Assembly: GCA_002436415.1 (NCBI GenBank)
Contig: DJMA01000028.1
Span: forward strand, 67,628-131,627
DNA length: 64,000 nt
Direction of reading: 5' to 3'
Origin: Bdellovibrionaceae bacterium UBA6502
GTDB lineage: Bacteria; Bdellovibrionota; Bdellovibrionia; Bdellovibrionales; UBA840
Shown: in pieces, positions 10,676 through 62,557 of the stretch
Layout of the letters: each line of letters begins with the position of its first letter
Position numbering within the stretch: position 1 is the first letter of the stretch
The notes under the pieces: model-generated
Databases searched by the model: none
Told to the model about the DNA's origin: nothing
The model's input: the letters and a program-made list of their open reading frames with translations, nothing else
Made by a program: the position numbers and the translations under genes

Positions 10676-11791
10676 GTGCTTAGGTGGCGAGATGAAATTA
10701 ACAAGAACTTCAATCGAATTGTAATAAAATTAGGTTCCAATTCCATCACCAAAACAAGTGGCGGTATAGACTCCAACAAAATAAAAGCCATTTGTGAAGG
10801 CATTAAAGAACTACACAAAGAAAAAAAAGAAGTAATATTAGTTTGCTCAGGGGCCATACAAACAGCCCGAGGGATGATTAAAAGCAAATCGCAAAGACTG
10901 AGTCAGTTACAAGCTCTAAGCTCCATAGGTCAAAATCAAGTGATCACAGCCCTGCAAAGTGAGTTCAAAACAGAGCAAAGCCCCATTGGCCAAATACTCC
11001 TAACCCATGAAGACTTCAAGAGCTCAGAGAGGTATTTTAATTTACAAAACACAATCAATGAACTCTTAAATTGGAAGGCTCTTCCAGTAATAAATGAAAA
11101 TGATAGCATAAGTTTCAATGAAATTAGCCTAGGTGACAACGATCAACTCGCCGCTTTAATTTCTGAAAACTGTAATGCGGATTTACTACTGCTGCTAACA
11201 GAATCAAAAGGCTTGTACACCGCCCACCCCGACTCGCCTGGCGCAGAACATATTCCCTTTATTGAGTACAATAAAGACCTAAGTTTTATTAAAACCATGA
11301 ATAAAAGCATCGCAGGTCGCGGAGGCATGAAGACCAAACTAGAGGCTGTACGCAAACTAAGCCCTTTAGGGGTACCAGTAATAATCGCTGATTATCGCTG
11401 CCCTTCCCCAGTGCTAGAAGCGCTTTCTAGCTCTGAAACATCAAGCTTTTTTGAAGCGGCCCCTGAAAAACTCAACAAGAAAAAGGCTAGGCTCCTCACC
11501 AGCGTAAAAGAAAACTGCTACATAAAAATAGACAAGGGAGCTGCCCAGGCCTTACAAAAAAACAAAAGCCTTCTCCCGGTTGGTATTAAAGCCGTACACG
11601 GCCGCTTTCAACGTGGCGACGTTGTTAAGGTATTTCATTCTAGAAGCCTGATCGCTCAAGGAATTGCTGAATTTAGCTCTACAGAACTAAGAAAGCTGCT
11701 AAACACCGATCTAAGTGCTGACTACCCCGAGAAATACAACCTACCCTCACGGGTCTTCATCCATAAAAACAATCTCCTTCAAAAAAAATAG
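10676..11791 (+). CDS. proB: Glutamate 5-kinase paralog (kinase + PUA domain), orphan copy
   Basis: IVIKLGSNSIT, VCSGAI, PVINENDSIS, GDNDQLAA, GRGGMKTKLEA and a C-terminal PUA region (LLPVGI...GRFQRGDVV). AGGAG RBS before GTG 10676. A second proB lies at 61412-62557. Confidence 0.85.
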   Translation: MLRWRDEINKNFNRIVIKLGSNSITKTSGGIDSNKIKAICEGIKELHKEKKEVILVCSGAIQTARGMIKSKSQRLSQLQALSSIGQNQVITALQSEFKTEQSPIGQILLTHEDFKSSERYFNLQNTINELLNWKALPVINENDSISFNEISLGDNDQLAALISENCNADLLLLLTESKGLYTAHPDSPGAEHIPFIEYNKDLSFIKTMNKSIAGRGGMKTKLEAVRKLSPLGVPVIIADYRCPSPVLEALSSSETSSFFEAAPEKLNKKKARLLTSVKENCYIKIDKGAAQALQKNKSLLPVGIKAVHGRFQRGDVVKVFHSRSLIAQGIAEFSSTELRKLLNTDLSADYPEKYNLPSRVFIHKNNLLQKK

Positions 11792-53421: not shown

Positions 53422-53586
53422 ACATTCACTCCCTTCATTGACTATTACCCGATTTTAACAAGCTCTAGATTCAAGGAAAATGCTATTTTGCATTGTTCTT
53501 GAAAGCGTAAAAAGCTTGTTTCAAATCAAGTCATTGCATAATCTTATTTTATTAAATATTTTAAAGTTAAAAAACGAGGAGCAAGA

Positions 53587-53979
53587 ATGAAGCTATCCTA
53601 TGTAATTTTATACGTGGAAGATGTAGTGAGATCTGTTGATTTCTATAAATCTGCATTTGGTCTTAAACACAAATTCACCCATGAATCTGGTGACTACGCT
53701 GAAATGGATACTGGAAGCACAAGTTTAGCCTTTTGCAAACACCAATTAGCAGAACAGATCATCAAAGGCACTTACCACAAAGCCTCACTAAAAGACAAAG
53801 CCCTAGGTAGTCAAATTAGTCTGGAACCTGAAGATGTAAAAACAGCCTACCAAACAGCAATTGAAAACGGAGCTTATTCAATTAGCCAGCCTGAAGTCAA
53901 AGAATGGAACTTTGAAGTGGCAATAGTTCGTGACTGCGACGGTCACATTATTGAACTAGCTAAAAACTTAAACCCATAA
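53587..53979 (+). CDS. VOC/glyoxalase-family protein
   Basis: 130 aa. MKLSYVILYVEDVVRSVDFYKSAFGL is the typical N-terminal beta-alpha-beta-beta-beta module. GGAG RBS. Confidence 0.75.
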   Translation: MKLSYVILYVEDVVRSVDFYKSAFGLKHKFTHESGDYAEMDTGSTSLAFCKHQLAEQIIKGTYHKASLKDKALGSQISLEPEDVKTAYQTAIENGAYSISQPEVKEWNFEVAIVRDCDGHIIELAKNLNP

Positions 53980-53994
53980 CCAAATTTAAAAGCT

Positions 53995-54425
53995 AGGTTC
54001 AAATCTGGCGGAAAAACTCAAACATTAAGATGGTCTTTGAAAGTCGTCAAAATTGGTTGCGGGAGCCAGCGGTGCTGAGAAAAGCATTATTTGCTTTTCG
54101 ATGACCGCAGTGAGCGGCCAAAAGCTTATTAAGCTTTTGGCGTCTAGCGAACCACAAACAGTAGGTTCAAATCTGGCGGAAAGAAAGAACGCAAAAAAAA
54201 GACCATCTAAAAAAGATGGCCTTTGAAAGTCGTCAAAATTGCTTGCGGGCGCCAGCGGTGCTGAGAAAAGCATTATTTGCTTTTCGACGACCGCAGTGAG
54301 CGGCCAAAAGCTTAACAAGCTTTTGGCGTCTAGCGAACCACAAACAGCAGGTTCAAATCTGGCGGAATGAAAGAACGCAAAAAAAAGACCATCTAAAAAA
54401 GATGGTCTTTGAAAGTCGTCAAAAT

Positions 54426-54439
<14 letters not shown>
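53995..54439. repeat. Tandem 186-bp repeat array: two full units, one truncated unit, and a third unit that merges into the 3' end of the tRNA-fMet gene
   Basis: ctttgaaagtcgtcaaaatt occurs at 54035, 54221 and 54407. aggttcaaatctggcgga occurs at 53995, 54163 and 54349. The two full units (54035-54220 and 54221-54406) differ by 8 substitutions and no indels in my manual alignment. The last 14 nt of the tRNA, including CCA, recur at 54054-54067 (exact) and 54240-54253 (2 substitutions). Confidence 0.9.
54387..54407 (-). terminator. Rho-independent terminator of tRNA-fMet (copies in each repeat unit)
   Basis: On the - strand: gaccatc-tttttta-gatggtc followed by T8. A second copy at 54201-54221 has one stem mismatch. 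The third copy (around 54026-54034) is degenerate. Confidence 0.8.
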
Positions 54440-54502
<63 letters not shown>

Positions 54503-54668
54503 AAAGCAAAGTATGAAATATTGGGCTCAGAGTCAAGGAAGTTACTATCTTTTTTTTGGCTGCTGTAAATACATGCGAAATTTGAAATTAGCTTACGATA
54601 ATCACTATCATACTTTGACCAAAGCAAGGAATCGTGGAAGATTGCAGTTGTTCAACAGGGAAAATTCA

Positions 54669-55271
54669 ATGGCAAAACTTTACTTTAGATACGGAACCGT
54701 CGGAAGCGCGAAAACTTTAAACCTTTTAGCTGTGGCACACAATTACCAACAACAAGGTAAAAAAGTTTTATTAATCAAACCAGCTTTAGATATCCGTTTT
54801 GGTAGAGCCCTTATTAAAAGTAGAGCTGGCTTAGCAAAAGAAGCCCATATGTTAATTGAAGAAGGCCAGCGAATTGTCCTACCCACTGAGCCTATAGACT
54901 GTATTTTAGTAGACGAAGCACAGTTTTTGAGTAGTGAGCAAATTGAAGACTTACAAAAAATTGCTAGTCTCGGTGGGATTCCTGTTATTTGCTACGGATT
55001 AAGAGCGGACTTTAAAAGCGAATGCTTCGAAGGTTCCAAAAGATTACTCGAGCTGTCCGATAGTATCGAAGAAGTAAAAACAACTTGTAACTTTTGTGAC
55101 CGAAAAGCAATTTTTAATCTCAAATTCATAGACAACAAAGCAACGAAAACAGGCCCTCAAGTAGATCTTGGAGCTGAGGAAAAATACCTCCCTGCCTGCA
55201 GCAAATGTTATCATGACTTTTTAGAATCAAATAAAGAGTTAAGCCCTAGTAAAACAGATTTAAGCTTATAG
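54669..55271 (+). CDS. tdk: Thymidine kinase
   Basis: MAKLYFRYGTVGSAKT P-loop, VDEAQFL, and a C-terminal Zn ribbon (CNFCDRKA ... CSKCYH). The track ORF start at 54402 runs through the tRNA gene and is rejected. Confidence 0.9.
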   Translation: MAKLYFRYGTVGSAKTLNLLAVAHNYQQQGKKVLLIKPALDIRFGRALIKSRAGLAKEAHMLIEEGQRIVLPTEPIDCILVDEAQFLSSEQIEDLQKIASLGGIPVICYGLRADFKSECFEGSKRLLELSDSIEEVKTTCNFCDRKAIFNLKFIDNKATKTGPQVDLGAEEKYLPACSKCYHDFLESNKELSPSKTDLSL

Positions 55272-60187: not shown

Positions 60188-61434
60188 TAACTCCTAATGT
60201 GTCCTTCACCTTCAACCACGAAACGGGAACTAGTCATTTGCTCTGCTCCCATTGGACCGTATGCATGTATTTTCGTAGTAGATATTCCAAGTTCAGCCCC
60301 AAGGCCCAACTGACCACCATCATTAAATCTGGTAGAGGCATTGATCATCACACAACTAGCATCCACACAACGTAGGAATTTCTCACTGTTTACTGCGTCT
60401 TCTGTAACGATGGCTTCAGAATGTTTACTACCATGTCTCGCGATGTGCTCGATGGCATGATCCATATTTTCGACGCTTCGGATGGACAATATATTTGCTA
60501 GGTATTCCGTATCCCAATCTTCACTATTTGCCAGCTTCAAGTTTTTATCATTCGCAGCAGACTTAAATTCTTCATCCACTCTCAATTCGGTGTTCTTGTC
60601 TTTCAACTTCTGAACCAACTTAGGAGCAAAGTCTTTTAAAACCGATTTATGAACCAAAAGAGTTTCGATGGCGTTACAAACGCCTGGTCTCTGAGTCTTT
60701 GCGTTAACCACCAAGTTTAGAGCCTTTTCTAGATCGGCCGCTTCGTCAATGTACATATGGCAAAGCCCCTTATAATGCGCGATCACTGGCATTTTTGCTG
60801 TATCGCTTACGTATTGAATCAAGCCTTCTCCACCACGAGGAATCACCACATCAATGTATTGATCTAACTTCAAAAGCTCTTCTACATTTTTGCGATTATC
60901 AGAAGACAAGACTTGAACTAAGTTTTTATCGGTAAACGGGGAAATGGCCTGGGAAATGATCTTTCCTAAAATTTCATTGGAATGCTTCGCTTCTTTTCCG
61001 CCTTTTAAAATGATTGCATTGGAGGATTTAATGGCTAAGGCAGCACAATCCACCACCACATTGGGACGGCTTTCGAATATCATTAAAATGACTCCAAGAG
61101 GAATTCGCTGCTTTTTCACCATCAAACCGGCGGCATTTTTTTGTTCTTCAAAAAAACTACCCACAACTTGTTTTTGTTTTGAAATTTCACGAACACCATC
61201 CATCATTTGCAAAATTCGATCTTTGCTTAACTCCAAACGATCTATCATCGCTGCTTCTAAATTATTTTCCTTGGCTAGCTTTAAATCCTTTTGGTTCTCA
61301 CTAATGATTTCATCCATATTATTTTCTAAGTGCACCACCAAACTCTCAAACATCTTCTCTTTGATGCTTTCTTCTTTACGTAAAAACTGTGTCGCCGCAT
61401 GTCTTGCTTGCTTAGCTAACTCTTTCATCCTCAA
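60187..61434 (-). CDS. proA: Glutamate-5-semialdehyde dehydrogenase (gamma-glutamyl phosphate reductase)
   Basis: FESRPNV, KGGKEA, catalytic VCNAIETLLVH, HGSKHSEAIVT, NASTRFNDGGQLGLGAE. Confidence 0.95.
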   Translation of the reverse strand: MRMKELAKQARHAATQFLRKEESIKEKMFESLVVHLENNMDEIISENQKDLKLAKENNLEAAMIDRLELSKDRILQMMDGVREISKQKQVVGSFFEEQKNAAGLMVKKQRIPLGVILMIFESRPNVVVDCAALAIKSSNAIILKGGKEAKHSNEILGKIISQAISPFTDKNLVQVLSSDNRKNVEELLKLDQYIDVVIPRGGEGLIQYVSDTAKMPVIAHYKGLCHMYIDEAADLEKALNLVVNAKTQRPGVCNAIETLLVHKSVLKDFAPKLVQKLKDKNTELRVDEEFKSAANDKNLKLANSEDWDTEYLANILSIRSVENMDHAIEHIARHGSKHSEAIVTEDAVNSEKFLRCVDASCVMINASTRFNDGGQLGLGAELGISTTKIHAYGPMGAEQMTSSRFVVEGEGHIRS

Positions 61435-62557
61435 TTCCTTCCTTGTTTATAACTAAATTTAAATGGTGGACCACTTGGTTTGAATTTTGATAACCTAAAA
61501 TATTTTGAATATCATCACTGGTGTAGCCCATGATCTGTGAGATCTCATCATTTCCGTATTCACAAATACCAGTGGCAAAAAGTCTATTTTTGTAACGAAT
61601 ATCGATACAGTCCCCTTGATAAAACTCCCCTTCCACCTGAACAATTCCTTCTGGTTGCAGAGGTTTATTCTCACTCAATTTTCGATAAGCAGTTTCATCA
61701 ATCTCTATAAAACAATTTGGCTTTTTAGTGGATAACATCCAAGCCTTTCTATCTTCAGGGTCATATTGATTTTGCGGAGAAAAATAAGTTCCAATCTTTT
61801 TCGTCAGTGGATCTACGATGATTCTCTCGGCATCTTTTGAACTAACAATTGCCTTAATGCCTAAAGGAGTAATTTTAGAAATGGCCTGAACCTTGGACTC
61901 CATTCCACCTCTACCGATACTGGTTTTACCTTGAAAGTTAACCTGTGATAAATCACAACTTAATGTTACGCGATCAATCTTTTTAGCACCTTCTTTGGCT
62001 GGATCTTTGTCAAAAAGCCCATCCGTAGAAGTAATGATTAATAACAAATCCGCATTTACCATTTGCGCAGTCTGTACCGCTAAATGATCATTATCACCTA
62101 CCGTAATTTCTGTATAAGAAATGGAATCATTTTCATTTAAAATTGGCGTAATTTTGTTTTTTAGTAAAACAGATACATTGGCTTTGGTATGAAGAAAACG
62201 TTTTCTATCTCGAAAATCATCGTGGGTTAATAGGATTTGAGAACATAGCTTTTGGTTTTCTTCAAAAATTCTTGAGTAGGTATTGATTAATTTAGGTTGC
62301 CCTACAGAACTCGCTGAATGCATTAACTGAATTTTATCTGCTTCTGGCATATACTTATTTAGAAATGCTTTCCCAAGAGCCACCGCCCCTGAACTCACCA
62401 AAATCACTTCAACGCCTTGATCTACGAGATCTGAAATATCCTCGACGATCTTGCGAATCTTCCTGGTGTCTAGCTTACCGCTTTTTTTAGTGATGGCATT
62501 ACTTCCAACTTTGACTACAATTCTTTTTAATCCCGACAATTCATTACGAAAAATCAT
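61412..62557 (-). CDS. proB: Glutamate 5-kinase (kinase + PUA), operonic copy
   Basis: IVVKVGSNAIT, VSSGAV, PILNENDSIS, GDNDHLA, GRGGMESKVQA and a PUA region (LQPEGI...GEFYQGDCI). 23-nt overlap with proA. Confidence 0.95.
   Translation of the reverse strand: MIFRNELSGLKRIVVKVGSNAITKKSGKLDTRKIRKIVEDISDLVDQGVEVILVSSGAVALGKAFLNKYMPEADKIQLMHSASSVGQPKLINTYSRIFEENQKLCSQILLTHDDFRDRKRFLHTKANVSVLLKNKITPILNENDSISYTEITVGDNDHLAVQTAQMVNADLLLIITSTDGLFDKDPAKEGAKKIDRVTLSCDLSQVNFQGKTSIGRGGMESKVQAISKITPLGIKAIVSSKDAERIIVDPLTKKIGTYFSPQNQYDPEDRKAWMLSTKKPNCFIEIDETAYRKLSENKPLQPEGIVQVEGEFYQGDCIDIRYKNRLFATGICEYGNDEISQIMGYTSDDIQNILGYQNSNQVVHHLNLVINKEGIEDERVS

Follow-up and report, generated by a model that had tools for sequence, protein, structure and literature searches.

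At the locus considered here, a VOC/glyoxalase gene (53587-53979, plus strand), a tandem repeat array, a tRNA gene and the tdk gene follow each other in the window, i.e. in the whole 64,000-nt stretch of DNA that was analysed and that is identical to a marine Tara Oceans scaffold. Its exact protein matches carry annotations to Bdellovibrionota / Pseudobdellovibrionaceae MAGs. ARAGORN and the Rfam tRNA model (65.2 bits) agree that the only tRNA gene at the locus is a tRNA-Met(CAT) on the minus strand (54426-54502). Judged by eye against the established identity rules it is of the initiator type: the anticodon stem contains three G-C pairs, and the pair A11:U24 is present. A C1xA72 mismatch is the usual state in bacterial initiator tRNAs; in this gene position 1 is a U that pairs with A72, and the mismatch is absent. 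Just upstream of the tRNA 5' end, inspection by eye found a promoter-like element (TTGACT, a 15-nt spacer and CATACT; 54508-54536, minus strand), which a consensus scan had missed because of its 15-nt spacer. In the sister species described below the same region differs by one substitution, which the alignment places 4 nt upstream of the -35 hexamer. The element presumably drives the whole transcription unit of tRNA and repeats. Elsewhere in the window there are two glutamate-5-kinase-like ORFs with AA_kinase and PUA domains (10676-11788, plus strand; 61412-62554, minus strand), the second of which adjoins proA-like and proC-like ORFs.

According to Tandem Repeats Finder the array is the sole tandem array of the 64-kb window (54027-54439, period 186, 2.2 copies, 95% matches, no indels), and its repeat matches were reached in none of 100 shuffled sequences. 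No further copies of the unit were seen elsewhere in the 64 kb. A first-pass annotation, made from the sequence alone, had described a 20-mer recurring at 54035, 54221 and 54407, i.e. with a 186-bp period, an 18-mer recurring at 53995, 54163 and 54349, and 8 substitutions without indels between the two full units; all of these figures proved exact when they were recounted. The same is true of the repeats of the tRNA end: its final 14 nt (TGGTTGCGGGAGCC on the plus strand) stand at 54426 and, without change, at 54054, and recur with 2 changes at 54240-54253. The unit core is indeed richer in GC than its surroundings (0.45-0.51 vs 0.27-0.42 in the flanks), as had been remarked on the same occasion.

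The anatomy of the unit is best described in the sense of the tRNA. After the CCA of the tRNA there follow a 19-nt trailer, a terminator, a C/U-rich linker of about 15 nt, an inverted copy of the T arm, three hairpins and finally a direct copy of the tRNA end, CTGGC-TCCCGCA-ACCA, which corresponds to the 3' strand of the T stem, the 3' strand of the acceptor stem and the CCA; the trailer and the terminator then repeat. The likeness of the direct copy to the tRNA reaches 14-16 nt (CTGGC vs CCGGC), and the copied CCA is itself variable, reading AGCA in unit A and in one of the other strains (L005). The first segment (54369-54425, minus strand) comprises the tRNA 3' trailer (ATTTTGACGACTTTCAAAG), terminator 1 (hairpin 54384-54410, T8) and a short linker. 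Terminator 1 has an 11-bp stem, a hairpin free energy of -14.8 kcal/mol and a U8 tract. The core of unit A (54251-54363, alignment columns 16-128) is predicted by RNAalifold and pair counts to form a closing helix around three hairpins. The 5' strand of this helix is the inverted T-loop/T-stem copy found by inverted-repeat search and alignment (54350-54363; GCCAGATTTGAACC on the minus strand), which is the reverse complement of the T-loop and of the 3' strand of the T-stem of the tRNA. At its 3' end unit A has the 14-nt tRNA-end copy that carries 2 changes (GGCGCCCGCAAGCA, 54240-54253).

Beyond unit A lie a second trailer copy, terminator 2 (hairpin 54198-54224, T8) and a linker (54183-54239), then the core of unit B (54065-54177, including an inverted T-arm copy at 54161-54177) and, as the 3' end of unit B, the unchanged copy of the 14-nt tRNA end (GGCTCCCGCAACCA, 54054-54067). 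A covariance model matches unit A at 54240-54378 with 174.5 bits and unit B at 54054-54192 with 177.4 bits, and the z-scores of the folds are -3.3 and -4.3, respectively. The statement that each unit carries the tRNA trailer and a hairpin followed by T8 was borne out by a terminator scan, which found intact minus-strand terminators at 54410-54384 and 54224-54198; thus one of the two 11-bp-stem T8 terminators stands after the tRNA and the other after unit A. The truncated distal copy, noted before as abutting the VOC stop, is seen here as a partial unit (53994-54053, minus strand) that adjoins the stop codon of the convergent VOC gene and contains the trailer, a broken terminator hairpin and a third inverted T-arm copy (53996-54009). 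This third hairpin was destroyed by an 18-nt deletion.

What the first reading of the sequence had overlooked is that the recurring 18-mer contains an inverted copy of the T-loop and T-stem of the tRNA. In the window this copy agrees with the tRNA in 15 of 17 bases, a value that was equalled in 2 of 500 shuffles. The sister species and other strains have it as an exact 14-mer (GCCGGATTTGAACC). The inverted and the direct tRNA pieces pair with each other and so close a predicted four-way junction of about 113 nt, which leaves ...UCCCGCAACCA single-stranded on its 3' side.

VOC, array, tRNA and tdk are contiguous in every strain examined and in a sister species (L013, MAG XB_MAG598), the Tdk of which is 95% identical at the amino-acid level and which has VOC, the unit, tRNA-fMet and tdk with one core. 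The relatives had been recommended as a check on whether the unit always accompanies this tRNA, and it does so throughout the strains and the sister species; neither an island nor an empty site was found at the locus in 10 or more assemblies and the sister species. Two cores are present in the window, L009 and L066, and one core in L005-L008, L010 and L013, i.e. the window has two full units and a partial one, and the one-copy strains and the sister species have one full unit and a partial one; the one-copy alleles come from short-read metagenome assemblies, in which 186-bp repeats can collapse. However, the L005 type was found in four samples and is also distinct by its intact distal terminator. 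The distal terminator hairpin is intact in L005-L008 and in L013, and the 18-nt deletion is present in the window, L009, L010 and L066; since the distal terminator is lost in the lineage of the window, any transcript of unit B would continue there antisense into VOC. The haplotypes of the unit among assemblies of the same species look recombinant, and variants of the terminator loop are common to both repeat copies within one genome and differ between the species. The layout of flank, core and flank is older than the split of the two species.

We note that this tRNA is a frequent breakpoint of the assemblies. L065 stops at the CCA and L004 (1-60) in the T arm, L067 and L068 have foreign DNA beyond the tRNA (metagenome assemblies are often chimeric at tRNA-fMet), and in L066 a partial and a full tRNA start are separated by an N gap, in which a second tRNA copy could be hidden. 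Among more distant Tdk homologues, L002 (77% identity) has no upstream tRNA, L003/L014 and L073-L075 are not syntenic, and in L004 (Tdk 68%) the tRNA adjoins tdk and the contig stops in the T arm. The comparison is therefore one of two species.

Between the window species and L013 the repeat unit is 88-90% identical and its core 89-91%. The third-codon positions of tdk and of the rhodanese gene are 62% identical in each case, those of VOC 42%, and the spacer between the rhodanese gene and VOC is 62% identical. At the neutral rate, 14 or fewer differences in 139 nt would have a probability of about 1e-13. This level of identity points to clear purifying selection on the unit. The VOC/glyoxalase gene itself (671-1063 in L013) is at 64% amino-acid identity, as compared to 95% for tdk, and it is far more diverged than the rhodanese gene also, which suggests relaxed selection or replacement.

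From the six distinct units RNAalifold predicted 39 pairs, and all of the 234 cells (234/234) are paired. Variable columns of the six-unit alignment are found at 7 of 78 paired and 13 of 61 unpaired positions. All substitutions within the predicted stems keep the pairing (7/7); two pairs show compensatory double changes (C-G to U-A and C-G to A-U), and three pairs show one-sided changes, all of them A/G opposite U. A shuffle control equalled the observed pairing values in 11 of 500 trials, with two species being compared. A conserved reading frame was sought in six frames and none was found: L013 has a stop that breaks the antisense frame, and nearly all substitutions in the one sense frame that is open are non-synonymous. 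The protein-coding reading was rejected in all six frames.

The simplest alternative is that a 186-bp stretch was duplicated in tandem by slippage or unequal crossing-over, that the unit has no function and that its hairpins are incidental. Copy number does vary among the assemblies, the copies are homogenised within each genome, and the unit has no promoter, no Rfam match and no other copy in the window, all of which agrees with such a duplication. However, a unit without function would not be expected to stay at 88-91% identity where neutral sites have fallen to about 62%, nor to have every stem substitution preserve pairing, twice by compensation, and the flank-core-flank architecture predates the species split. 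We consider this explanation unlikely.

Which strand would carry the function is a separate question. The orientation of the terminators and of the tRNA 3'-end copies is that of the tRNA. No cell is broken in the sense consensus, as against 4 of 240 in the best antisense consensus, and reading the same helices on the opposite strand costs 1-4 pairs per sequence. Taken alone as strand evidence, the three one-sided changes have p of about 1/8. The antisense folds are at least as stable (alifold -48.5 antisense vs -44.5 sense). On balance there is modest evidence that the functional strand would be the tRNA sense. The plus strand, or the DNA itself, might instead be functional, e.g. as a stabiliser or terminator in the 3'-UTR of VOC, as protein-binding palindromes of the REP kind, or as an RNA that is antisense to the tRNA trailer. 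The plus strand folds as stably or more so, palindromic hairpins fold on both strands, and no terminator of VOC precedes the array. Against this, no plus-strand hairpin is followed by a T-run, four pairs that are G.U in the tRNA sense turn into A.C (variants fixed in L005 and L013 are among them), VOC is poorly conserved (64% amino-acid identity) next to a well conserved unit, and REP families, unlike this unit, have further copies, of which there is none in 64 kb. A function of the plus strand or of the DNA is in our view decidedly improbable.

Duplicated tRNA 3' ends call to mind integrated elements, and the array could be an att-site scar, or a tandem miniature element that targets tRNA-fMet, with the duplicated tRNA ends as attL and attR. 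Integrated elements typically have such ends, crossover often takes place in the T-loop region, and the unit contains sequence derived from the T arm. Yet the direct repeats of about 100 bp flank just some 90 bp. A Pfam search for integrases and transposases found none among 30 ORFs, which agrees with the earlier remark that the window has no integrase, and the integrase-bearing island between the tRNA-end repeats of related strains, by which an ordinary scar would have been recognised, was found neither in any strain nor in the sister species. Distant BLAST searches of phages and plasmids and a pattern scan of IMG/VR gave nothing. The core is moreover conserved above the neutral level, and a scar would not stay 90% identical with compensatory changes. 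An att scar is very improbable. The first-pass annotation had raised this reading together with that of a decayed array of tandem tRNA-fMet genes, the bodies of which were replaced or mutated beyond recognition. A period of 186 bp would accommodate a tRNA (77 nt) with trailer, terminator and promoter, the tRNA end, trailer and terminator are kept in each unit, and L066 gives a hint of a second tRNA start across its N gap; but the similarity of the core to the tRNA in the same sense is at chance (151-351 of 500 shuffles), the sole tRNA-derived internal piece is inverted, the core is conserved rather than decaying, and ARAGORN and the Rfam tRNA model (E up to 10) are silent within the units, so we give decayed tRNA genes hardly any credence. 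A tRNA-like gene on the plus strand, where the T-arm copy is in the plus sense, was rejected, there being no cloverleaf, no ARAGORN or Rfam match and an A.G mismatch in the would-be T stem.

Database searches assigned the unit to no sequence family. The Rfam scan returned only tRNA matches, both at the locus (E up to 10) and in the whole window (gathering score), and the weak matches to RNAI, SprD and others were rejected as noise; the cmscan that had been advised earlier thus gave no family for the unit. A 21-mer that is invariant in the core had no match in an exact DNA scan of 185,579 species genomes, and in the species representative either the locus is missing or this 21-mer is different. 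A covariance model built from six units found no further copy in the window and 15 related loci. A metagenome search with the pattern GATTTGAACC, 80-110 nt, CYGGCNCCCGCAA gave 43 matches, all of which were rejected as unrelated; they are mostly tRNA-Pro loci, and two are tRNA-Met loci with a chance match upstream. Among these loci a motif, TTGCGGGNGCCRG, stands about 40 nt upstream of tRNA-Pro(CGG) in L027, L028, L030 and about 25 others, and these soil metagenome contigs share a divergent tRNA-Pro(CGG)/tRNA-Gln(TTG) pair. The motif is the reverse complement of a tRNA-fMet-like 3' end, and its region is probably the conserved promoter region of one clade.

The layout of the array is, in spite of these results, a described one. 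In E. coli, 22 tRNA-linked repeats (TLRs) are known at 10 loci, with 1-5 repeats per locus; the units are about 150-180 bp long, lie immediately downstream of a tRNA or rRNA gene, in the same operon and orientation, and have as their last 18-19 bp the very sequence with which that gene ends (PMC8144298). They are reported only in E. coli and related Enterobacteriales, and most of the E. coli TLRs are without a known function (PMC8144298). The repeats at tyrT/tyrV are attributed in the citing papers to Egan & Landy 1978 and Bosl & Kersten 1991 (cited in PMC8144298 and PMC3318445). [quoted passage not shown] We know of no description of TLRs outside enteric bacteria.

In a direct check of the E. 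coli K-12 tyrV locus we found a 178-bp repeat in 3.1 copies, the array overlapping tyrV by the final 19 nt of that gene. The repeated CCA is exactly where the annotated rttR ends, and in the predicted fold of rttR an inverted copy (GGGGAAGGAU) and the tRNA-end copy close a helix around three hairpins, with a ...CACCACCA tail. The likeness to RtT (rttR, RF00391) is conspicuous: in both cases tandem units (178 bp in E. coli, 186 bp here) stand directly 3' of a tRNA in the same sense, each unit ends in a copy of the tRNA 3' end including the CCA and is followed by the same trailer, the copy number is multiple and fractional (3.1 in E. coli, 1.5-2.4 here), and an inverted copy pairs with the direct copy to give a three-hairpin junction with a ...CCA tail. 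There are differences also. The repeated tRNA end is 14-16 nt here and 18-19 in E. coli, the tRNA is fMet in Bdellovibrionota and Tyr in Enterobacteria, each of the present units is provided with a canonical intrinsic terminator of its own, and there is no Tpr-like conserved ORF. Above all, there is no similarity in sequence or by covariance model: the RtT model had no match in 53500-54700 at E up to 10, nor in the window or L013 at its gathering score (45 bits), three E. coli units used as a control scored 134-138 bits, and BLAST against 5,426 E. coli genomes found no match to the unit. Since no homology to E. coli RtT was detectable, the functional analogy with it is one of architecture only. 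The layout fits that of a TLR and the RtT model and BLAST are negative, so the element is a TLR by description that stands outside the enterobacterial RtT sequence family. The previous remark that the array belongs to no described family thus holds for curated sequence families, as Rfam gave no match, and fails for the layout, which is that of the E. coli TLRs (PMC8144298). As a side observation, the trailer ATTTTGACGACTTTCAAAG (54407-54425, minus strand) and the E. coli tyrV/TLR trailer TCACTTTCAAAAG (L072, 1424-1444, minus strand) share ACTTTCAAA, which could be due to chance or to a common 3'-processing signal.

Two further groups of RNAs invite comparison. RrA, RrB and RrF are TLRs that lie between the dual terminators T1/T2 of rrnA, rrnB and rrnD, and they arise when transcription reads through T1, in the case of RrB the T1 of rrnB (Stenum et al. 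2021, PMC8144298). The module here resembles them in standing between two intrinsic terminators 3' of a stable-RNA gene and in ending in a copy of the 3' end of that gene, whereas their upstream gene is a 5S rRNA and they show no sequence similarity to the unit. RrA, RrB and RrF bind Hfq and CsrA via GGA motifs, while the hairpin loops of the unit contain, as judged by eye, no GGA. 3'ETS-leuZ is an sRNA sponge made from a tRNA 3' external transcribed spacer (Lalaouna et al. 2015, cited in PMC8144298). It is likewise an RNA from the 3' flank of a tRNA (a putative one in our case), with a level tied to tRNA transcription, but it precedes the terminator and has neither a tRNA 3'-end repeat nor a tandem arrangement.

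Our preferred reading, to which we give a probability of roughly 0.6, is that the array is a TLR-type element, i.e. a structured non-coding RNA module of about 113 nt in the sense of tRNA-fMet and immediately downstream of it. Of the readings offered by the first-pass annotation this favours the tandem small-RNA gene that shares the 3' end and the terminator of the tRNA. Its transcription, strand and processing, and any role in trans, are inferred.

The way in which a TLR-type module may work can be sketched as follows. Neither a scan nor inspection by eye found a promoter for the unit (the trailer contains TTGACG, which lacks a -10 hexamer at a spacing of 16-19 nt), and since the module has no recognisable promoter we propose that its transcription would start at the tRNA-fMet promoter and read through terminator 1, as in the case of RrB between rrnB T1 and T2. 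Terminator 1 appears to be competent, and read-through may therefore be low. The transcript would stop at the next terminator and its 3' end would be trimmed by the machinery that matures the tRNA, because the module carries the same 3'-end, trailer and terminator signals as the tRNA; a similar proposal, that the repeat directs 3' processing like that of the upstream RNA, has been made for the E. coli TLRs, and transcription and processing into a discrete RNA were shown for rtT and RrA/B/F (PMC8144298). The expected product is a discrete RNA of about 125-190 nt, the abundance of which, given a shared promoter and tRNA-type 3' maturation, would follow the transcription of the initiator tRNA. 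The exposed C/U-rich linker and the UCCCGCAACCA-trailer segment are candidate interaction surfaces. The direct repeats of about 100 bp, composed of the 14-mer, trailer, terminator, linker and inverted T arm, may drive unequal homologous recombination and gene conversion, which would account for the presence of one or two copies and for the homogenised repeats within genomes.

A more speculative extension, which we regard as a long shot, is that the TLR layout arose independently in Bdellovibrionota and in Enterobacteria under selection, and that the RNA mimics the 3' half of a tRNA, engages the tRNA-handling machinery and so tunes or reports the maturation or supply of the initiator tRNA. Such a mimic would display a helix resembling the T stem and, after it, the acceptor 3' strand and ACCA in unpaired form. 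Its partners might be RNase E, the 3' exonucleases, the CCA-adding enzyme or, with the RNA acting like an external guide sequence, RNase P.

The E. coli TLRs were first described in 1978 and are still without an established function. A TLR-like layout is now found in another phylum, on another tRNA and without detectable homology to the E. coli TLRs, and the occurrence of the same layout in a second phylum, together with the signs of purifying selection, argues against an accident of enterobacterial history. If the unit were not expressed it would be merely a conserved curiosity of one marine lineage. As a TLR-type module, on the other hand, it would be a second, independent system in which the role of such RNAs can be asked. 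It also suggests a search rule: one would look in the roughly 250 nt downstream of a tRNA for another copy of its last 14-19 nt that is paired with an inverted partner. If the mimicry of the tRNA 3' half were true, it would provide a general mechanistic rationale for TLRs.
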